A stretch of DNA of 64,000 nucleotides, taken from the IMG/VR virus record IMGVR_UViG_3300045988_154892; one strand, written 5' to 3'. Below, piece after piece: positions 1 through 64,000 of the stretch. The notes below the pieces were generated by a model. The model had not been told where the DNA came from, ran no database searches, and was given only the letters and a program-made list of their open reading frames with translations. The DNA comes from a virus. The position numbers and the translations under genes are program-made. Within the stretch, counting starts at the first letter, position 1. Each line of letters opens with the position of its first letter.

Positions 1-3000
1 TCATTGTTGTAGCATCTGATTTCATAGTATTAATATCGCCTTGTGCATTAGAAATACTCTTTTGTAGCCCAGAAGCTGTCGCTTGTAATGAACTTACGTC
101 TCCTTGTGTATTGCTTAAATCCGTTCTGATGCCTGTTGCTGTTTGTTCCACTTTTGTAATAGCAGAGCTTGTATCTTCTGGAGCCGGACTCCATTCGGAA
201 TGACGATTTCCCTTTTCGACTTTGAACATTTTCCATCGAACAGTTCCACTTTGGACATAATCATGTCTTAGATTAACAAACCAATATGAATTTTTTATCT
301 GGTCTGCAGAAACGGTTGTCGTATATAAAAATTCTTTCGTTCCGCTTCCAGAAATAGCAATGCTTGGACTTGATGGAAATGCTCCAGAACTCCATCCCGT
401 TACATTTCCACTACCTTGTATCCATACTTTGGCAGTTTGCCCAGTAGCAGCAACAATATTTGAATAATTGTAATATAGATAAATCGTAATTTCATCACCT
501 GCAGCAAGACCATCTGTTAGAACGGTTGCAACTGATGGGCAGATATTTTCTGCACCACTAAAACCAGAAAACTCAGAAGAATAAGAACTGGATGTATTTC
601 GAGCAAGATTTCTGCCTCCAATATAAAGAGAATTGAAATCTGTTTGTTTTGTATATGTTTTAGATACTTCTTGTGTGATGCTATCTGCTTTCACTTTAAT
701 AGCACTATTCATTTCTGTTGTTGTAGAATAATTGGCAAATTTACCATTAATCTCTTTTTTTACTTGATCTAACTGCACATTGGTAGCACGTAAAGAAATA
801 TCATTTGTATTTTGCTGAATTGCTGTTTCAGCAGAAGATATTCTTGTTTCCATCGCCTTAATACGAGATACAATCACATTGCGAATTTTTAATGTTCCTG
901 AAAAATTTCCCCAACTTTCAGTTTGAAGGAATACTCGAAAATATCTTGAATTTACTGGAACGCTAACTACAGAACTAATTTTTGTAGCTGTTGCTGCGGC
1001 AGTAGCAGTTGTTCTTGTGCTATAATTAATACCAACGCTTTGTTTTTGAGCATTAAATCCATATAAGCCGATCGCAGTACCTTTATAAGTACTATCTGTT
1101 CCTTCATTCGTTGAGTTGCCTTTTACAGAAGTAGAGATTTCAAACTCTATATTAAATGATTCTCCACCCATGCATTCATAATATCCAGAAATAAATTTAT
1201 CCCTTGACAAAGTTTTTACTGTATACCATTTACCATCTGCCGTATTATCATATGTAAAACCAAAATAATCTGCAGTGTCTTCTTTTAATTGTGAGTAATT
1301 CATTGGATCGCGGCTAAGAATATTAATATTAGTATTATTATTTGTTATTTGCGACTGAAGGTTTGTTGACGTCCTTTGTAATTCAGAAATATTGCCTTTT
1401 GCATCCGAAATATCTGATTTCATTGTCTTTGCATCGGATTTTAAAGTGTTAACATCTCCCTGGGCATTCGTGATTTTTGTTGAAAGACCAGACGCGTCAG
1501 ATTTTAAAGTCGTGATATCACCTTCAGCAGTTTTAAGTTCTGCTTTAATTTCTGTATCTGTTTGAGATAAGGTAGTAACATTTCCTTGAAGTGTTTTGAC
1601 ATTAGTTTCGATTTTTCCAGCACGTTGGTCAAAACTTGAATATTTGCTCGTTGCGTCATTTTTAGTTTCATATGTAGATGCAACTGTTTGTTTGAATCCT
1701 GTAGCATCTTGTTTTATAGAAGCAATGTCTTTTTGGACACTTGCTTGATTATTTTTGACTGTGGTTTTAACATCGGATACTTCCGAGGTTATTTCGCCAA
1801 TCTTAGTTTCTTGCGAACTCACTTGATCCCGAAGAGATTTAACGGTTGTGCCATCATAATTATTTACTGCGGTTGTAATATCTGTTTGCCAAACCTTGTT
1901 TGTAATTTTCTTGTCAATACCATCCACTTTGCTAGATACACCATTAACTCTGGTAGTTACAGTAGTCAAGGCATCCTTCATTTTGTCATCAGATAATACG
2001 ATAACCGTCTGTCTGTCTAGCACAACAGATACTTTGTCAGTTTGACTTAATGTACATCGTACACTTTTAATGTTATTTGACGTTGGGGTATAAGTTAAAG
2101 ATGATTCATTTTTTGAAGAAAGATATGTGGATTTGAAATCACTTCCTGTTGTCGATTCTTCTATTGTAAAAAGACCATGATACGGAATTCTATCGCTTCC
2201 ATCTTTCTGATAATAAGCATTAAATGTAATAGAAGCAGGAGAGAGTGTTCCATCATATGTTTTGTTTATTACATATGATGATGGTTCTATGGAGTAGATA
2301 TAGGACAACCCACCATCTTTAGATTTTGTCCAGGTAAAGTTTTTAACTAATGTTTTTCCATTTATACTAAATGTTAAGACTATATTTCCAGTTAATGTTG
2401 ATTCAGTGCCAAGTGTAGCATTTTTTACGATATTCAAAATTATCGATCCATCATTAGATATTGTACAATTCTCAGTTGACCCAAGGGTCATTCCAGATGG
2501 AAGAGTGCCGACTGCTACACTACATGGTGTTCTTGTTAAACCTCGATACCCTACAAATGATATCTCTATTAACATATCATTAATGACATGTCCATCATAT
2601 GTACATGGAATATTTTGTGATTCGTTTCCAAGAGATATACTTAAAGCAGGTTCGCCAGGATTTCCCTGACCACCAACTGCACCCGCTTTTGCAAGTGACC
2701 AAGAAACTTCTTTCTTAAATACTAATCCATTTACAGAAATTGGTATGGAGAATTTTCCGTAATCTGCTTCAATTTTATTTCCAGCCTCGACAGAAAATGT
2801 GATTGTATTATTTTTTTGTGTTACCGAAATTCCATTTTTACTTTCAACTGTTCCAATAGTGAAATTACTAACTGCATCTGTACCTTTGAATACCACAACA
2901 GAAGTATCAAAAGATTGATCCATTAAAGCAATATTATTTTGATTAGAAACAGAGAATGTTATATTTTCATTTTGAAGAATAACAGTATATGCCGACTCTC

Positions 3001-3232
3001 CATCGTTACCTTTGATTCTTGTCCATGTATAATCGTTAGGATTATCGGATTCATGTTTTTCAGTTTTGTTATAAGCAATGCCTATATAAACTGCATTTGT
3101 TGGATCGTCCGTTAAGCCAGTTCCATTTTCATCTTGTGCATACTTCACCCAGATATATTTGGAATCTGCGGATGTTCCATCTTTTCCATGTTGCAAAATC
3201 AACATGTCTAATTCGTTGCTTGATAGTAACAT
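1..3232 (-). CDS. Tail fibre / receptor-binding protein, first ~1077 codons (gene continues past left edge)
   Basis: ATG at 3232-3230 follows AAGGAGGTG. My - strand translation stays open to position 1; the codon at 235-233 is in frame with 3232. It is absent from the ORF track because there is no stop in the window. Motifs: SADSKYIWVKYAQDENGTGLTDDP..YIGIAYNKT..NDYTWTRIKG, a heptad-rich middle, and WKMFKVEKGNRHSEWSPAPEDT, typical of Gram-positive phage fibres. It lies downstream of Dit/Tal. Confidence 0.6.
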   Translation of the reverse strand, partial: MLLSSNELDMLILQHGKDGTSADSKYIWVKYAQDENGTGLTDDPTNAVYIGIAYNKTEKHESDNPNDYTWTRIKGNDGESAYTVILQNENITFSVSNQNNIALMDQSFDTSVVVFKGTDAVSNFTIGTVESKNGISVTQKNNTITFSVEAGNKIEADYGKFSIPISVNGLVFKKEVSWSLAKAGAVGGQGNPGEPALSISLGNESQNIPCTYDGHVINDMLIEISFVGYRGLTRTPCSVAVGTLPSGMTLGSTENCTISNDGSIILNIVKNATLGTESTLTGNIVLTFSINGKTLVKNFTWTKSKDGGLSYIYSIEPSSYVINKTYDGTLSPASITFNAYYQKDGSDRIPYHGLFTIEESTTGSDFKSTYLSSKNESSLTYTPTSNNIKSVRCTLSQTDKVSVVLDRQTVIVLSDDKMKDALTTVTTRVNGVSSKVDGIDKKITNKVWQTDITTAVNNYDGTTVKSLRDQVSSQETKIGEITSEVSDVKTTVKNNQASVQKDIASIKQDATGFKQTVASTYETKNDATSKYSSFDQRAGKIETNVKTLQGNVTTLSQTDTEIKAELKTAEGDITTLKSDASGLSTKITNAQGDVNTLKSDAKTMKSDISDAKGNISELQRTSTNLQSQITNNNTNINILSRDPMNYSQLKEDTADYFGFTYDNTADGKWYTVKTLSRDKFISGYYECMGGESFNIEFEISTSVKGNSTNEGTDSTYKGTAIGLYGFNAQKQSVGINYSTRTTATAAATATKISSVVSVPVNSRYFRVFLQTESWGNFSGTLKIRNVIVSRIKAMETRISSAETAIQQNTNDISLRATNVQLDQVKKEINGKFANYSTTTEMNSAIKVKADSITQEVSKTYTKQTDFNSLYIGGRNLARNTSSSYSSEFSGFSGAENICPSVATVLTDGLAAGDEITIYLYYNYSNIVAATGQTAKVWIQGSGNVTGWSSGAFPSSPSIAISGSGTKEFLYTTTVSADQIKNSYWFVNLRHDYVQSGTVRWKMFKVEKGNRHSEWSPAPEDTSSAITKVEQTATGIRTDLSNTQGDVSSLQATASGLQKSISNAQGDINTMKSDATTM

Positions 3233-3253: not shown

Positions 3254-6200
3254 TTACATTTTTTCGATTAATGTATCGATATCTTTATCTGTTAATATAT
3301 TCGCATTTTCCTTGATTGCATCGATAACGGTTGTTCCAATCTCTTCATAAGATTTGCTGAGTAATTTATTTAAAATTGCATCTGCTAATAAATCATAATT
3401 TATCTGTTTAAGAGATTTTCCACTATTGACAAATACGCTATCAGAAGAATCAAGCACTTCAGTTGTATTTACATCAATAATATTTTTGCTCGAAGCAGAA
3501 GTATCTGATGCTGCTTCAACGGAATATAGACTAATTCCATTTTCATCTTGCAATGTATTTGATTGCTCATCCGTAATTGACACTTGTGCTACGTCTCCAA
3601 TATCAACTAGACAACGAATTCTCTTACGTATAATTGATTTATCAACATTAATTGTCAATGTTTTATTATTTCCAACCGTTTTCCAACCACCTGACTCGTT
3701 ATTTATAATTTGCCATTTGTAAGATATCGGTTCCATAGGCGTAGCACCTTTATATACTTGACATGCACATATAGTACTCGTAATTGTTGTATCATCATCA
3801 AACACTACTCCTTTTTCGCTGGTGATAATTACAGAAATAGAAGGCTGTCCATCGACTCCATTTAAACTATCCAAAATATGTACAGTTAATACATCGTATA
3901 ATTTTTTTGTGGAATCTTCGACTTTAATAACTAAAGATTTTTTTGTTGATGGTAATGTTGCAATATAAGAAGATGGTATTGTGATTGAAGTTTTATCCGT
4001 AGATACATATCTTGTATTTTCTGCATTATCTATATACCATTTACCGATTTTAACATCATTTCTATATTTTGCCGTTATAGTTATATTGTTTGGAGATATA
4101 ACACCATCTATTTTTCGAAATATCTGTTCACCATATAAGTCTAGCGTACCGATTTTATCTTCTACATTTTCAATTTGATCAGTAATTTGTTTTTTAATTG
4201 AGACGAACTCTGCATCAACTCCATGCCCATTAACAATGACTTTTGTAGCATCAACATTTCCATTTTTATCTGCTTCAACAATATTAAAATTTAATTTATC
4301 CTTAGAAAGAGTACCATCTGCAACCATATCATTTTTGATTAATCCATCAGCAATAGCAGACTCCTTGATTCCTTTTGAATCAATTAATATACCTTTTCCA
4401 GTCTCGTCATATAAAGTAAACGTAAAATTGTCCTTTGCATCACGACCAATTTGAATACGTACATTATTATTTTTGTCTTTAAATTGCATTGTGTTACCAA
4501 CGATAGTAAGTCCACCATCGTCGGAAGCAATATTAAATTTATCGGCAGAAATAGTACTTGCCTTTAGCATTGCTACAGTAATATTTGCCGCAATCAAATC
4601 ACGAATTACTGCATCGTCAACAACAACATTACTGGCAGTAAGATGAATAAGGTGTCCAAGTTCTGCAGAAATATTTCCAGCCAATAAACTATCAATCGCA
4701 GCAACAACTGCGGATAATTCCTTAAAATTACCACTACCTGCGACAATTTTATCAGCAGAAATTAATTTTGACTGTAGATATTCGAAATATCCATTCTCAC
4801 CATATAGATCAGTAACTTTAATCAACTTGGCATTTAATTCTTGTAATGATATAGAACCACTACCAAGCATACCTGCGAATTCATTATTTATAATGGAAGA
4901 AACTTTATTGCTGAATGCACCAGAGGATAAAAGCTTTTGGATTAGCCCAGATGTAAGAGTGATGCCTTCATTGTTTAAGAAATTATTAGATGAACCAGAT
5001 GCGGAAGATTTACTACCACCAGATGAATTATCCAGAAGATAAGAAATATCAGAAAATCCATTTTTGGTTCGAGTCATATTGGAAAATGTTAATTCGATAT
5101 TGTTGTCCATTGTTAATGGATTGTATGTCATTTCAATTAAACGCAGTTTTATAACATTACTATTTCCAATCGTTAAATACAAATAATCTCCACGGTTGAT
5201 GTTTTTTGTATAATCTTTATATTCACTTTTCGCTAAAAAGTTATCTAATGATGTTGTATATTGATATTGTGGGTGAGAAGATATGTATAAATCATCAGAT
5301 GCAGCGTCCAGCAATTTTAGTTGCTCATCAATTGCAGAAACTTGCTCATCAGAATCTGTGAGAAACATATTATCATTTGAATATGTTCCATCATAATAAA
5401 CCTTAGATAGTTCTAATAAATCTTTTGTCGAAAATGAAATTGTATCAGATAGCGATGAGATATTTCGATTGGATTCATCAGTGATATAATTTGCATTCTC
5501 ATCAGTAATAGAAACATTAGTTTGATGAACCCAAGTTTCTTTGTTTACTTGTTGAGTTAATTGAACTCGTGTTTTATTATATCCATTTAAAACATCATTG
5601 GCTGCATCAATTTCAGATTGTCTCTGATCATATGCTTCCTGGCATCCTCCTACATAATTAGAATCTAATTGATTTTGAGCGTCCAGATATTTTGTATACA
5701 TCTTATCATGAATGTCTTTAGTGTGAGAAGAATCTTCAGAATATGGTTTATCGTAACCGCCCTTTTTACAAGTTTCAATTGTGTTTTTATACTCTTGCAG
5801 CTTTACTTTTAATTCGTCTAATCCGTATAACTTCCAATCGGTTTTATAAGAGTCTACGTAATCTGCATTGTCATCGTCAGTAGGTAATTGACGATTATCT
5901 ATTTCGATTTGAATAGATGGAAGAATTACATCTCGAATTTGATAATAATCATTAGCATCCGAAGACTTTTTCAAGGCATCCTCATCAAACTTGCCATCGC
6001 TATCTACATAGAATTGTTCATAACCCTTGAGTTGGGCCTGGTAATTTGCTTGTGCTTCCTTTAATTCATCATCTGTAAATGTACTCCAATCTGTAGAGCA
6101 ATCATCCAAAGGAACACGATCATACAATTCTGTGATAACTTTCATCTGTTGATTATATTTTCTAGTCGCTTCAATATAATCAATTCTACAGTTTTCCATA

Positions 6201-33792: not shown

Positions 33793-33973
33793 TTCCTTCT
33801 ATATACAATAAAGCGGGAGAGTAGTGTTCAGTCATTTCTACTCTCCACAAAGAAAATGCCCTTACCAGGCGACTGAACTTTGGTCTAGTAAAAGCATTTT
33901 GGATGTGTTATAATAGTTAAACGGTCACAAGTTCTTAGTCTGTAATTTCAGAAGAAAGTTCTTGGTGATATCT

Positions 33974-34084
33974 ATGTTCTATGAAATGTATCCATTTCTC
34001 GTTCACGTATGTGCTTATTGGCGCTTCCGTCTTAATAGATGGGAATACGTTAGGGAGCACTGGCGTTCTTATCCTTCCCGATAG
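33974..34084 (+). CDS. W/R-rich 36-aa peptide, cassette A (MFYEMYPFLVHVCAYWRFRLNRWEYVREHWRSYPSR)
   Basis: My own translation. Paralog of 59089..59205; the differences are mostly synonymous (CGC/CGT, CTT/CTA, GTT/GTC, AGG/CGT, CAC/CAT, TCT/TCG). An extended -10 TGtTATAAT lies at 33906-33914. A 13-bp stem joins 33922-33934 to 34164-34176 and is followed by CUUUUUU. Confidence 0.6.
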   Translation: MFYEMYPFLVHVCAYWRFRLNRWEYVREHWRSYPSR

Positions 34085-34209
34085 GATAGAACACCACGCT
34101 TTGTAATTTTCCAGTAGAACCAGGGTTGAGCTTTCTGATAAAAACTTAACACGTCTATTGTGGGAACCTGTGACCGCTTTTTTACTTTCAATGAAATTCA
34201 TCTTTCAAA

Positions 34210-52440: not shown

Positions 52441-52468
52441 ATGTATGTCTCCTTTTATAAAAAAATAA

Positions 52469-52551
52469 TACCGGCAGCGAGACTCGAACTCGCACTGCTC
52501 ATAACAATCTGGGCTTAAACCAGATGTGTCTACCAATTCCACCATACCGGC
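52469..52551 (-). tRNA. tRNA-Leu (anticodon UAA), class II
   Basis: GCCGGTATGGTGGAATTGGTAGACAC..TCTGG-TTTAAGC-CCAGA, a long variable arm, then GCGAG-TTCGAGT-CTCGC. Two G.U pairs in the acceptor stem. No encoded CCA. Confidence 0.8.
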
Positions 52552-52586
52552 ATACGGAGGCACTGCCTCCATTCGCTAATTATATA

Positions 52587-52676
52587 CGGAGCCTGTGGGA
52601 TTCGAACCCACGCGCCGTTGTTAGCGGCCTGTCAGTTTTCAGGACTGATCTCTTCATCCAACTTGAGTAAAGCTCC
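52587..52676 (-). tRNA. tRNA-Ser (anticodon UGA), class II
   Basis: GGAGCTT..TCAGT-CCTGAAA-ACTGA, a long variable arm, then GTGGG-TTCGAAT-CCCAC-AGGCTCC. As I fold it, the anticodon loop has C rather than U at position 33. Confidence 0.7.
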
Positions 52677-52686
52677 AAAACAAAAA

Positions 52687-52770
52687 TGAGCAGAGTAGGA
52701 GTCGAACCTACGGTGTTTCTAATGTGACGGATTTACAGTCCGTTGCTATCGCCACTAAGCACATCTGCCC
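52687..52770 (-). tRNA. tRNA-Tyr (anticodon GUA), class II
   Basis: GGGCAGA..ACGGA-CTGTAAA-TCCGT, a long variable arm, then GTAGG-TTCGACT-CCTAC-TCTGCTC. Confidence 0.8.
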
Positions 52771-52779
52771 ATAAAAATA

Positions 52780-57754: not shown

Positions 57755-57905
57755 ATTGCTGGTGCGATAGGAACATACCCTATACATTCGTTCCACCAAT
57801 AAAGATGAGATAGGAGAGTATTAACCATCCTATATTACTCATTATCAGGTTATCCACCCGTCTCTAATCATTTATTCTCTGCATTCGTTTGCAGAAAATT
57901 GTAAA

Positions 57906-57977
57906 CAGGAAGTCAGGGATTCGAACCCTGATTGACAGTTTTGGAGACTGTCGTGTTGCCAATTACACTAACGACCT
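57906..57977 (-). tRNA. tRNA-Trp (anticodon CCA) with two acceptor-stem mismatches
   Basis: AGGTCGT-TA-GTGT-AATTGGCA-ACAC-G-ACAGT-CTCCAAA-ACTGT-CAAT-CAGGG-TTCGAAT-CCCTG-ACTTCCT-G. Positions 4:69 (U-U) and 5:68 (C-U) do not pair. Confidence 0.6.
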
Positions 57978-58019
57978 GTATTTGAGTGCGTAAGCTGCAG
58001 TCTTACACACTCAACAAAA

Positions 58020-58916: not shown

Positions 58917-59088
58917 TTTAATATTCTCCTTTTGTTCAAATAAATTTTGCACTTATGAAGTGCTTGTCTAATTTTTTATAATGTGTTATTCTCTATAAGT
59001 ACGGAGCATCTTCCGTATTCTTGGTCATCGGCTTTTTCCCGAGTTTTGTACATTTGTTGTATAACAACGGAAAGGCAGGTGAAGTAAC

Positions 59089-59205
59089 ATGGCTATGTCA
59101 TATTCGATATTAACGCCAGTTCACGTTAATGCTTATTGGCGTTTCCGTCTAAATAGATGGGAATTTGTCCGTGAGCATTGGCGTTCGCTACCTCGACCAC
59201 GATAA
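59089..59205 (+). CDS. W/R-rich 38-aa peptide, cassette B (MAMSYSILTPVHVNAYWRFRLNRWEFVREHWRSLPRPR)
   Basis: Paralog of 33974..34084. TATAAT lies at 58977-58982. An 11-bp perfect stem joins 59023-59033 to 59281-59291. A terminator lies at 59304. Confidence 0.6.
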   Translation: MAMSYSILTPVHVNAYWRFRLNRWEFVREHWRSLPRPR

Positions 59206-59303
59206 AAACCGAGGAGCGCACCACGCAACGTCCAGATGGATCAGGCTCTCTGATAAGAGTTCTTGTATTCAATTCTAGGTAGCCGATGACCTTCTTTATA
59301 TGT

Positions 59304-59331
59304 AAGTACAGATGTATCTGTACTTATTTTT
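59304..59331 (+). terminator. Rho-independent terminator of cassette B
   Basis: AAGUACAGAU-GU-AUCUGUACUU followed by AUUUUU on the + strand. There is no U tract on the - strand. Confidence 0.65.
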
Positions 59332-61696: not shown

Positions 61697-62935
61697 TTAA
61701 TCTAATAAATCTGCCATAGCTGCAGTTTCACTTCGTTCTGTTTTCTGAAGCTGTACATAACCAAATTTTGTATGTCCTGCAAGTTTTTGTACAGTGGATA
61801 GTAAACCATTATTCATTCTAAAAAGAGTAGAATCTGTTTGTTTAAAATCTCCGTTCATCCAAAGAGCAGATCCTTCACCAACTCGTCCAATAAGAAGCTG
61901 GACATGTTCTTTTGTTAGATTTTCTGCTTCACTAACGTAGATAATCGCATTTTTAATATCTCGTCCTCGAATATAACCGAGATGTTCAACTTCAATATTT
62001 CCTGCCATAATCTGCATTTCCAGACCATTTTCTCCACCAAGGTGATCTGCTAACGGCATTGCAAATGGCAAAATCTTCTCAAATTTAGTACCAGGTAAGA
62101 AACCAACCTCATTTGCATCTTTTACGCCAATTGCATTTCTGACATAAATTAATTTCTCAAATTTTCCTTCTTCGATTAATTTGATAGCATTTGCAATCAT
62201 GAGATAGTCTTTTCCACTACCAAATCTACCTGAGATAACTTTGATTGTCTCTTCTTTGTCCTGTAGCATATCAAATGCTAAAACCTGTTGTGGGTTTCTT
62301 GGTTTGATTTTGCCCATAAAATGACTATTGATTTGTTTATAAGAAATAGGATGATATTCTTGTCCATTCCATTTTCTGTAATCAACAACCTCACCATCAT
62401 TCTTTCGAATTATCAGATATTCATTCAGAAGTGAATCATATTGATTTTCATTTAAATGTAAATAAAAATAACTCATTTCCTCATCAGAAAGAGTTACATC
62501 TTTGTATCCTGTATATTCATCAATATTTTTAACAAGATTTATTTCATTTACACCTTTAGTTGGTAGTTTAAAAATATTTTTTGAAATAAATTTACAATTG
62601 AGATCGTCTGTACAAACAATGACAGGAGATACATTTCGATTATATAAAACTGCTGATGCAAGAATAATGTTATCAGGTGTTTCCTCTAAGTAATATCCTG
62701 CAAGAATATTTTTTACATCTGTGTTAGTTGCGACAACCTCATATTCTCCATAATGCTCATCCAGCATATGAGCCGTTTGTCTGGCTTTGTATTTAACTTC
62801 ATTATCTTTATGACCTGAAGTCTTAATACTTTCAATCTCTTCAAGCGTCTTCTGTGAGATAATAAAGGGTTCTTTAAAAGCTTCCCTTTGCAAATTCAGA
62901 AGAGCATTGGTATCTAGGAATAATTTAAATTCCAA
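61697..62935 (-). CDS. phoH: PhoH-like ATPase with an N-terminal PIN domain (412 aa)
   Basis: N-terminus FLDTNALLNL is the PIN acidic motif. The P-loop is ISGRFGSGKDYL. IYVSEAENL is Walker B-like. RSETAAMADLL is the typical PhoH C-terminus. Confidence 0.7.
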   Translation of the reverse strand: MEFKLFLDTNALLNLQREAFKEPFIISQKTLEEIESIKTSGHKDNEVKYKARQTAHMLDEHYGEYEVVATNTDVKNILAGYYLEETPDNIILASAVLYNRNVSPVIVCTDDLNCKFISKNIFKLPTKGVNEINLVKNIDEYTGYKDVTLSDEEMSYFYLHLNENQYDSLLNEYLIIRKNDGEVVDYRKWNGQEYHPISYKQINSHFMGKIKPRNPQQVLAFDMLQDKEETIKVISGRFGSGKDYLMIANAIKLIEEGKFEKLIYVRNAIGVKDANEVGFLPGTKFEKILPFAMPLADHLGGENGLEMQIMAGNIEVEHLGYIRGRDIKNAIIYVSEAENLTKEHVQLLIGRVGEGSALWMNGDFKQTDSTLFRMNNGLLSTVQKLAGHTKFGYVQLQKTERSETAAMADLLD

Positions 62936-63172: not shown

Positions 63173-63200
63173 TCTTTGCATTTGCCACAAAGATAAATAG

Positions 63201-63274
63201 TTGGGGTGGTAGGACTCGAACCCACGACCGTTCGGATATAAGCCGAATGCTCTCACCAACTGAGCTACACCGCA
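63201..63274 (-). tRNA. tRNA-Ile (anticodon UAU)
   Basis: TGCGGTG-TA-GCTC-AGTTGGTGA-GAGC-A-TTCGG-CTTATAT-CCGAA-CGGTC-GTGGG-TTCGAGT-CCTAC-CACCCCA-A. Pair 1:72 is U-A and there is one C-C mismatch at 3:70. Confidence 0.7.
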
Positions 63275-63289
63275 ATAATGCTACATAAG

Positions 63290-64000
63290 TAGCAAAATAA
63301 GTACGCTGAGATTAAACGTATCTTCGGAAACCTTTACCGACATTATTTTTTCTTCGGTTATCCACTATATGTTGCTTGCGCACACATATAGTATCTTCCA
63401 CAACCGCCTTTTAAGAAGAGGCTTATCTTCTTTGCTGTATGACTACTCAAGTTTCATCATTCCATTAACACTGCCGTGCTACAAATCTCTGCTAAGAGAA
63501 CTGTGCAGAATCCGCTTAACACATCCAGATATTGCGTATCTTTCAGTGTGTGTATTACCTCAAAAGAGATTACACATTTTGGCTGCTTACACCATACAGA
63601 GGTACAGACTTTCGCTTGTATAATTTGTTTACCTTTTGCATTAAACCAATTTTTATATTCTTCCTGAATATACTAATTAATAGAAACGAAATTGAATACA
63701 GAAGACGCGCTGCACCAGATGTTTCGTTATCTTTTGGATAACAAAATCCATCACGCCTTCGTAGCTTTCGGTTATAATCCCTACTCGCATCCTGCATAAG
63801 CTAATTTGGCATCTCTACCAATTCACTTACCCAAATGGACATCGCACTTGTCTAATAAGGACTCGCACTATATATCCTCCTAATTCCCCATCATATCTTC
63901 ATAGGTTCGCGTGAGCTATTCTGTTGCGCAGAAAAATGATTCTCAGCGGTTGCCCCTGAATCACCTTGTTGCTCCCTATTTCCTGACACTATTTCCACAC
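63290..64000. ncRNA. ORF-free, structure-rich region next to tRNA-Ile; candidate large ncRNA (runs off right edge)
   Basis: No credible ORF on either strand over more than 700 nt in an otherwise tightly packed genome. Base composition looks richer in G+C than the flanks. On the - strand there are many GNRA-type loops (GCGAAAG, CCGAAAG, GCGCAAG, CCGAAGA) and local stems. Confidence 0.4.

Follow-up and report, generated by a model that had tools for sequence, protein, structure and literature searches.

The 64,000-nucleotide (nt) stretch of DNA from a gut phage analysed here, IMG/VR virus record IMGVR_UViG_3300045988_154892 (referred to below as the window), carries two paralogous small units on its + strand: cassette A at 33906-34183 and cassette B at 58977-59327. 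Each encloses a micro-open reading frame (micro-ORF) between the arms of a long-range closing stem, and each bears in its 3' untranslated region (3'UTR) an element complementary to the 5' end of 16S ribosomal RNA (rRNA). The cassettes show selection on the coding sequence, promoter and terminator signals, covariation of the closing stem, and a complementarity to 16S rRNA that is specific for one strand. An earlier note, made by a model from the sequence alone, had singled out cassette A as a stand-alone + strand unit, compared it with copy B and likened it to the mRNAs of hok-type toxins.

Layout and closing stem of the cassettes

Cassette A begins with an extended -10 promoter element (TGTTATAAT, 33906-33914), and the predicted transcription start at ~33921-33922 falls at the beginning of the closing stem. 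The 5' arm of this stem (CGGTCACAAGTTC, 33922-33934), which is part of the minimum free energy (MFE) fold, pairs with the 3' arm (GAACCTGTGACCG, 34164-34176) at 12 of 13 positions, the exception being an A.C mismatch. Directly after the stem comes a U tract, CTTTTTT (34177-34183), the likely 3' end of the RNA. Between the two arms lie a split Shine-Dalgarno sequence, AGAAAG-TTCTT-GGTGAT (33953-33969), and a micro-ORF of 36 amino acids (aa) of the phrog_21154 family (MFYEMYPFLVHVCAYWRFRLNRWEYVREHWRSYPSR, 33974-34084), for which an alternative TTG start at 33962 would give 40 aa. The Shine-Dalgarno sequence is predicted to be paired to the 3'UTR, with 14 MFE partners there and a probability of being unpaired of 0.23. 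Downstream of the stop codon, the element antisense to 16S nt ~45 to 1 occupies 34092-34146, its loop CUUUCUGAUAAAAA matching the extreme 5' end of 16S, and a long hairpin containing the antisense element spans 34107-34166. All features are on the + strand. The promoter, the stem with its 12 pairs, the U tract and the ORF coordinates were thus placed correctly in the earlier note.

Cassette B, also read on the + strand, has a -10 box TATAAT (58977-58982) and then a 5'-terminal hairpin (58998-59019), whose counterpart elsewhere (of the CGTGG..CCACA type) has another stem sequence and begins ~6 nt past the -10 box. The 5' arm of the closing stem (GGTCATCGGCT, 59023-59033) is followed by the motif UUUUUCCC (59034-59041), at which B-type cassettes keep TTT(T)CC. 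Its predicted partner is the GGAAAGG of the Shine-Dalgarno region, which in this cassette is long and bulged (GGAAAGG-C-AGGTGAAG, 59069-59084). The micro-ORF encodes 38 aa (MAMSYSILTPVHVNAYWRFRLNRWEFVREHWRSLPRPR, 59089-59205), and the element antisense to 16S nt ~45 to 1 lies at 59216-59262. The 3' arm of the closing stem (AGCCGATGACC, 59281-59291) is succeeded by TTCTTTA and by a canonical terminator hairpin with a T run (59302-59327). The description as stand-alone + strand units is borne out by the -10 box that each cassette has of its own and by the U tract or terminator on the same strand.

For comparison we used cassettes from 54 viral contigs and several metagenome contigs encoding relatives of the peptide; the statistics throughout carry no correction for shared ancestry. 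In nearly all cassettes the -10 box stands ~6-7 nt ahead of the first RNA structure. A-type cassettes have the closing stem in this position, B-type cassettes a 5'-terminal hairpin whose stem is lineage-specific. The long-range inverted repeat keeps a fixed place: the distance from the 5' arm to the ATG is 52-66 nt and that from the stop codon to the 3' arm 63-80 nt. T-rich tails lie behind the 3' arm in many cassettes. The arms themselves are unrelated in sequence across lineages (e.g. CACACTCGCCAGCC / GGCTGGCGAGTGTG, AGCCACCAAG / CTTGGTGGCT and AGGATATCGG / CCGATATCCT), and the stem covaries across more than 10 phage lineages. The earlier note had observed that the closing stems of A and B differ in sequence but keep pairing, and had proposed looking for covariation on homologous loci. 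On 16 cassettes, RNAalifold gave 11 pairs with compensatory double changes at all 11. The closing stem (11-13 bp) was found within the MFE fold of 15/15 cassettes folded, and the full-length + strand RNA was far more stable than shuffled versions, with z of -5.0 in cassette A and -8.0 in cassette B. Over 15 cassettes, the thermodynamically predicted probability that the Shine-Dalgarno sequence is unpaired ranged from 0.16 to 0.46. A search of the cassettes against Rfam returned nothing at the gathering score and only chance-level matches at E up to 10.

Complementarity of the 3'UTR to the 5' end of 16S rRNA

The similarity between the two copies continues past the stop codon (CACCACGC..CCAG..CAGG..CUNUCUGAUAA), as the earlier note had noticed. 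This similarity is real, and we now read it as an element antisense to the 5' end (nt 1 to ~40) of Firmicutes 16S rRNA, a nature which that note had missed. As the reference we took 16S from the plasmid rRNA operon of Priestia megaterium, with boundaries set by Rfam. When the reverse complement of the 3'UTR was locally aligned with the whole 16S, the best match fell at the very 5' end, nt ~-20 to 35, in 17/17 cassettes with this type of 3'UTR, with z up to 10.8. The closing stem is clear in 15 of these 17. The identity of the element to 16S is ~70-90%, and no 16S-like 21-mer was found elsewhere in the window.

Local alignment and a short duplex target replaced an RNAduplex comparison with the whole 16S, the energies of which did not discriminate because the duplexes had huge loops. 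The target was a 56-nt segment of 16S, nt -8 to +48, against which the + strand 3'UTR was scored with z relative to shuffles. The predicted duplexes of 16 cassettes ranged from -34 to -53 kcal/mol and from 29 to 43 bp, with z between -5 and -8 in 15 of them and -2.5 in the remaining one (L014). Cassette A gave -46.3 kcal/mol over 40 bp (z -6.0) and cassette B -51.4 kcal/mol over 40 bp (z -5.8). The duplexes of the opposite strand were null. The complementarity ends at nt ~-8, with a mean z of -0.6 for the leader further upstream and z of -1.1 to 2.7 for the 3' trailer; the matched region is therefore the mature 5' end of 16S.

The element is arranged as a hairpin whose 5' strand corresponds to 16S nt ~35 to 12 and whose apical loop corresponds to nt ~11 to 1. 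The loop is its best-conserved part, and the CTCTC within it is invariant. RNAalifold on a MAFFT alignment gave no consensus for this hairpin because indels shift its two strands out of register, and per-sequence constrained folds were used in its place. At least four of the five bases of CUCUC are unpaired in the MFE structure of 8/16 cassettes, and with the loop held open the enclosing hairpin forms in 13/16. Under the same constraint, the hairpin is more stable on the + strand than on the - strand in 13/16 cassettes, with 20 versus 10 G.U pairs. Substitutions relative to 16S are also biased: we counted 44 transitions compatible with G.U pairing against 6 of the opposite type (p = 3e-5, without phylogenetic correction).

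To cover natural 16S 5' ends, we collected 119 of them from metagenomes, many from human gut, with a search pattern that fixed nt 7-36 and left the bases upstream of GAGAG free. The two commonest 5' ends retrieved, TTTTATCAGAGAG and TTTTAACGAGAG, are matched by the loop variants CTCTCTGATAAA and CTCTCGTTAAAA, which are exact complements of the two commonest 5'-end variants, TTTTATCAGAGAGTTTGATCC and TTTTAACGAGAGTTTGATCC, in this metagenome set. Two contigs carry two cassettes in the same orientation within ~2 kb (L027 at 2971-3084 and 5281-5394; L029 at 2971-3084 and 4947-5060); both cassettes of L027 share one 16S 5'-end loop type, and so do both copies in the window.

Some homologs have a closing stem and no such element. 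The short cassettes (L024, L025, L044, L061, L068 and L069) form a Firmicutes subfamily, MGNVPMVHVRAYWRFRLNRWEHVRKHLRHYP, in which the closing stem hugs the ORF (GGTATACCACCTC / GAGGTGGTTATACC in L024) and the Shine-Dalgarno sequence is a perfect 12-nt one. A match to the 16S 5' end was seen in 0/6 short cassettes, and the duplex scores of five of six were null, with L026 at z -3.5. The proteobacterial loci L067 and L082 likewise have closing stems around the micro-ORF (GTGAGCCGCCAGC / GCTGGCGGCTCAC and GGTTACCGC / GCGGTAACC, respectively) and no 16S-like 3'UTR.

Two other origins or placements of the rRNA similarity were considered and set aside. An attP-type copy of the end of an rRNA gene, from which a near-identical core in a single copy would be expected, fits poorly with an identity of only ~70-90%, two copies per genome and a constant tie to the micro-ORF. 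As for the 5' closing-stem arm, which often reads ..CCGCCAGC.., it was also tried as an antisense to 16S nt 30-50, but no cassette had its best match there (z at most 2.8).

The micro-protein, its family and its accessory sites

The earlier note had argued from A and B for a translated peptide under purifying selection, and the substitution rates bear this out. Over 25 conserved codons of A and B, the nonsynonymous rate (dN) is 0.115 and the synonymous rate (dS) 1.03, a ratio of 0.11, and 112 pairs of homologous cassettes have a median dN/dS of 0.16. The entropy at third codon positions is twice that of first and second positions. On the opposite strand, an 88-aa ORF runs across cassette A; its homologs range from 21 to 97 aa in length, so it is not conserved and we regard it as spurious. 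In one ortholog of cassette B (L043, ~3019-3021), otherwise 99% identical, the first conserved Trp codon is changed from TGG to the nonsense codon TAG; the RNA elements are intact.

The peptides match the profile of phrog_21154, a family of unknown function, with E = 5.9e-5 (A) and 7.7e-5 (B). A profile search found 25 close homologs, every one annotated as hypothetical, and an exhaustive profile search with the homolog profile yielded 629 clusters at 50% identity, almost all of 30-60 aa. The homologs that the earlier note had suggested looking for thus exist in number, and the family that it did not recognise is already defined in PHROG and has hundreds of clusters. The peptide had no significant match in Pfam, among the sequences of solved structures, by Foldseek against the PDB, or in PADLOC, and a nucleotide search of a phage collection with the cassettes gave no match.

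Ten residues (V, V, Y, R, R, E, V, H, R, P) are invariant in the pattern V.V..Y.R.R....E.V..H.R..P, and both window peptides carry them all. Tryptophan is not among them: although the peptide had been described as Trp-rich, Trp varies from 0 to 3 per peptide across the family. The suggestion that it is membrane-active is not supported either, as the grand average of hydropathy lies between -0.6 and -1.4 and the best 19-residue hydropathy window reaches 0.45, where a membrane span would call for ~1.6 or higher. AlphaFold2 predicts a four-strand beta meander (predicted local distance difference test score, pLDDT, 80.6).

The core hairpin Y-R-R-G-E-V-H-R also occurs six times in P0026, a metagenomic protein of 1840 aa (e.g. 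ARPYIRTRRGRFEHVKGY), where it lies between enzymatic domains. P0026 is a polyvalent protein, of the virion-injected MuF kind, with MuF, ART-PolyVal (ADP-ribosyltransferase) and CCA-adding/HD domains. The polyvalent-protein class with MuF has been described (Iyer et al. 2017, PMC5512222), and a keyword search of that article did not find the hairpin motif. The repeats and the stand-alone peptides, which fit the PHROG profile at E ~6e-5, have the same invariant motif. The motif has no Pfam model. Its repetition in P0026 points to a binding module. We infer that the micro-protein binds nucleic acid, probably RNA.

Homologs are found in genomes of Lachnospiraceae, Bacteroidota and many Proteobacteria. 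In lambdoid prophages, including Shiga-toxin phages, they lie downstream of cI and orf22, before N, and are followed by a terminator. In P2-like prophages they come directly after gene A, beside a PrrC-like candidate defence gene or defence hot spot. Members of the family occupy lysogeny-expressed or defence-associated slots in both kinds of prophage. In the Enterobacter P2-like phage ENT4 (L004, 3096-5324, - strand), a 742-aa ATPase adjoins a 31-aa homolog; PADLOC assigns the ATPase to PDC-S06 (E 7e-256), with PrrC as a weaker match. In the RefSeq record of VT2-Sakai, the annotated coding sequence VT2-Sap22 (L001, 2399-2560, - strand) lies opposite to a conserved 40-aa micro-ORF (L001, 2462-2584, + strand), and this annotation is probably on the wrong strand. 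The named hosts found for the system are Lachnospiraceae only, and two cultured lysogens, Mediterraneibacter hominis NSJ-55 and Eubacterium segne BX4, carry it.

The cassettes behave as accessory cargo. At 19/22 loci both flanking genes are on the opposite strand. Cassette A has a RecU-type resolvase gene on one side and an uncharacterised gene adjoining a holin gene on the other; the neighbours of cassette B are an HU-like gene and an exonuclease gene. It is thus cassette A alone that sits near tail and lysis genes, a correction to the genomic context given earlier. In a set of 13 phages with RecU proteins 93-97% identical, cassette A was seen, apart from the window, in 2 only. Three aligned relatives without it have an unrelated 54-aa ORF of the same orientation in this slot, starting from the -10 box, and homology to relatives with a different slot gene stops at the -10 box of cassette A. 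The site of cassette A is therefore a variable accessory slot. The 54-aa ORF is acidic (MRNFTDEELEQ...; L211, 1187-1351, - strand), lies in the slot equivalent to window 33906-34200 and has the same promoter position. Like phage morons, the cassettes have their own promoter and terminator, are oriented against the operon, and show presence or absence and swaps of cargo in near-identical phages. The difference is that the cargo here is a 36-aa ORF inside an elaborate conserved RNA.

A proposed dual-function RNA and alternative readings

Our preferred reading, to which we give about even chances, is that the cassettes are accessory genes making a dual-function RNA, which serves both as the mRNA of the micro-protein and as an antisense hairpin to the 5' end of (pre-)16S rRNA. 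We infer the pairing with 16S in vivo, its effect and the role of the peptide from the features described above. A moron-type autonomous gene, set opposite to its neighbours, would be transcribed from a sigma-A-type promoter into a structured + strand RNA of ~260-310 nt. As an mRNA, this transcript would direct the synthesis of the 36- or 38-aa basic micro-protein, for which a small beta-sheet of four strands is predicted. As a regulator, it would present a 3'UTR hairpin in which the 5' strand together with the apical loop is complementary to nt 1 to ~40 of the host 16S, with the loop fitting the single-stranded 5' tail. The covarying 11-13 bp stem and the U tract would clamp the ends, probably to terminate transcription and to shield the RNA from exonucleases. 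For the Shine-Dalgarno region, masking by the UUUCC motif or by the 3'UTR is predicted.

In the most likely mechanism, the loop would kiss the 5' end of nascent or immature 16S, after which the duplex would spread over helix 1 and the strand of the central pseudoknot. The pairing would disturb how the 30S 5' domain folds, or give a readout of it, and the same rearrangement could expose the ribosome-binding site, so that the micro-protein would be made where the RNA docks. A further-reaching form of this idea is a phage-encoded, rRNA-directed riboregulator: the loop would catch the nascent 16S 5' tail, strand invasion would block helix 1 and the central pseudoknot and stop or slow the making of new 30S subunits, and the masked ribosome-binding site would be freed, so that immature 30S particles would both trigger and localise synthesis of the RNA-binding micro-protein. 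The system would in this form be a sensor and effector of host ribosome biogenesis, with a class of target that we did not find described for natural antisense RNA. We put this specific mechanism forward as a tentative proposal that we consider unlikely.

Several points weigh against the dual-function reading. rRNA is far more abundant than any mRNA, and stoichiometric inhibition of 16S would seem plausible only with very high expression or a local action. In the mature 30S, only ~nt 1-8 of 16S are free. Homologs outside the Firmicutes (Lachnospiraceae-associated) phage lineage lack the anti-16S element, and the peptide therefore does not need it. The masking of the Shine-Dalgarno sequence is a thermodynamic prediction only. 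Two observations bear on the choice of strand: the closing stem has as many G.U as A.C combinations (4 vs 4), which points to neither strand, and the helix-1-like pairing of 16S is better kept by the - strand, where most cassettes have 4-5 of 5 pairs, which leaves some probability for a mimic made from the - strand.

A simpler explanation we consider unlikely as well. The cassette could be a plain micro-protein moron, in which the RNA structure stabilises or terminates the mRNA and tunes translation, and the 16S complementarity is a by-product without a trans role, for example a recruited rRNA-derived sequence. The peptide family is indeed widespread without 16S-like sequence, some of these homologs have closing stems as well (those of L067 and L082 and of the short Firmicutes group), and most of the antisense segment is hidden within a hairpin. 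However, despite saturated synonymous sites (dS >1), the element has been retained in 17 diverged cassettes, which come from two old groups of paralogs. Its apical loop, with the invariant CTCTC, is conserved best and tracks the lineage-specific 5' tail of 16S. Neither this conservation nor the bias of 44 to 6 toward G.U-compatible changes is needed by a generic stabilising hairpin.

In a second alternative, the - strand RNA is the functional one. Read-through of the surrounding operon would make a mimic of the 16S 5' end, with helix 1 and the 5' tail in a loop, set in the long-range stem. Host factors that recognise the 16S 5' end, such as RNase J1, RNase III or RbfA-like ones, would meet this mimic as a decoy or a signal for processing; or else it would punctuate a polycistronic mRNA. 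The micro-ORF would be an independent rider. The helix-1-like pairs that are kept include G.U and compensated variants that the + strand would mismatch, and in a real pre-16S the leader surrounds the mature 5' end with a hairpin of just this shape. The position of 19/22 cassettes inside opposite-strand operons and the neutral G.U counts of the closing stem are consistent with this alternative too. On the other hand, the promoter, the 5' hairpin and the U tract are all laid out for the + strand, and 13/16 cassettes have the more stable hairpin on the + strand. Closing stems are also present in homologs without 16S-like sequence. The close relatives that carry an unrelated small + strand gene in the slot of cassette A speak against a cis role in the operon. 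A complete miniature pre-16S on the - strand was rejected: the 16S similarity ends at nt ~-8, neither the leader above it nor the 3' trailer is similar, and only the mature 5' end and a trivial Shine-Dalgarno complement are left. Taken together, we judge a functional - strand RNA to be quite improbable.

A hok-like type I toxin-antitoxin system, in which a closed inert mRNA for a toxic cationic peptide is controlled by antisense transcription (maybe from the surrounding operon) or by slow processing, is very unlikely: the paired ends, the predicted masking of the Shine-Dalgarno sequence, an RNA built for stability and the patchy accessory spread in prophages agree with it, but the peptide has no hydrophobic segment and a predicted beta-sheet rather than a helix, Trp is not conserved, the PADLOC defence library gave no match, the motif repeated in large injected proteins fits a binding module better than a toxin, and neither a - strand promoter, for which both cassettes were scanned with consensus sequences, nor a conserved antisense gene was found inside the cassettes, where read-through from the flanking operon could still supply an antisense. 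Type I mRNAs of hok/sok consist of a small ORF in a stable RNA of ~250-400 nt with fold-back pairing of the 5' and 3' ends and a masked ribosome-binding site, and they too belong to mobile elements. The cassettes differ from them by a basic, hydrophilic peptide without a membrane helix, by showing neither an antisense antitoxin gene nor an overlapping leader ORF, and by a 3'UTR that complements rRNA where that of hok is a processing tail. The likeness proposed in the earlier note is thus supported only as an analogy of RNA architecture, with paired ends and a Shine-Dalgarno sequence predicted to be largely masked, and the peptide lacks the hydrophobic character of such a toxin.

The dual-function reading has parallels in SgrS/SgrT, RNAIII/hld and SR1/SR1P, which also combine a small ORF with a separate base-pairing module on one transcript. 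The cassette RNA differs in its predicted target, the 5' end of 16S, in a complementarity of ~40 nt as against a short seed, and in being phage-borne. To our knowledge, the targets of natural bacterial and phage antisense and dual-function RNAs are mRNAs or other small RNAs, and a literature search of partial coverage found no description of phage rRNA mimics, anti-16S RNAs or an RNA aimed at the 5' terminus of 16S. U3 small nucleolar RNA pairs with 18S pre-rRNA at its 5' end, and in bacteria the leader of pre-16S pairs with 16S nt ~10-25. Both resemble the proposed pairing in that they engage the region of the small-subunit rRNA that later forms helix 1 and the central pseudoknot; they differ as cellular assembly chaperones acting on their own rRNA, while the cassette RNA would be foreign and trans-acting.

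If the pairing is real, temperate and large Firmicutes phages of the gut would own a compact RNA tool that touches ribosome biogenesis or docks on the 30S. The pairing would also provide a first functional handle on a very large unannotated family of prophage micro-proteins (629 clusters). The system is small, with an RNA of ~260 nt and a peptide of 36 aa, and is open to direct testing in vitro.

The window also holds other RNA genes. A full-length GOLLD RNA (Rfam RF02032, 195.9 bits) lies at 63303-63761 on the - strand and adjoins tRNA-Ile(TAT) at 63200-63274 (-), and a PhoH-like gene is found at 61697-62935. Further tRNA genes, all on the - strand, are a cluster of tRNA-Leu(TAA), tRNA-Ser(TGA) and tRNA-Tyr(GTA) at 52468-52771 and a separate tRNA-Trp(CCA) at 57905-57978.

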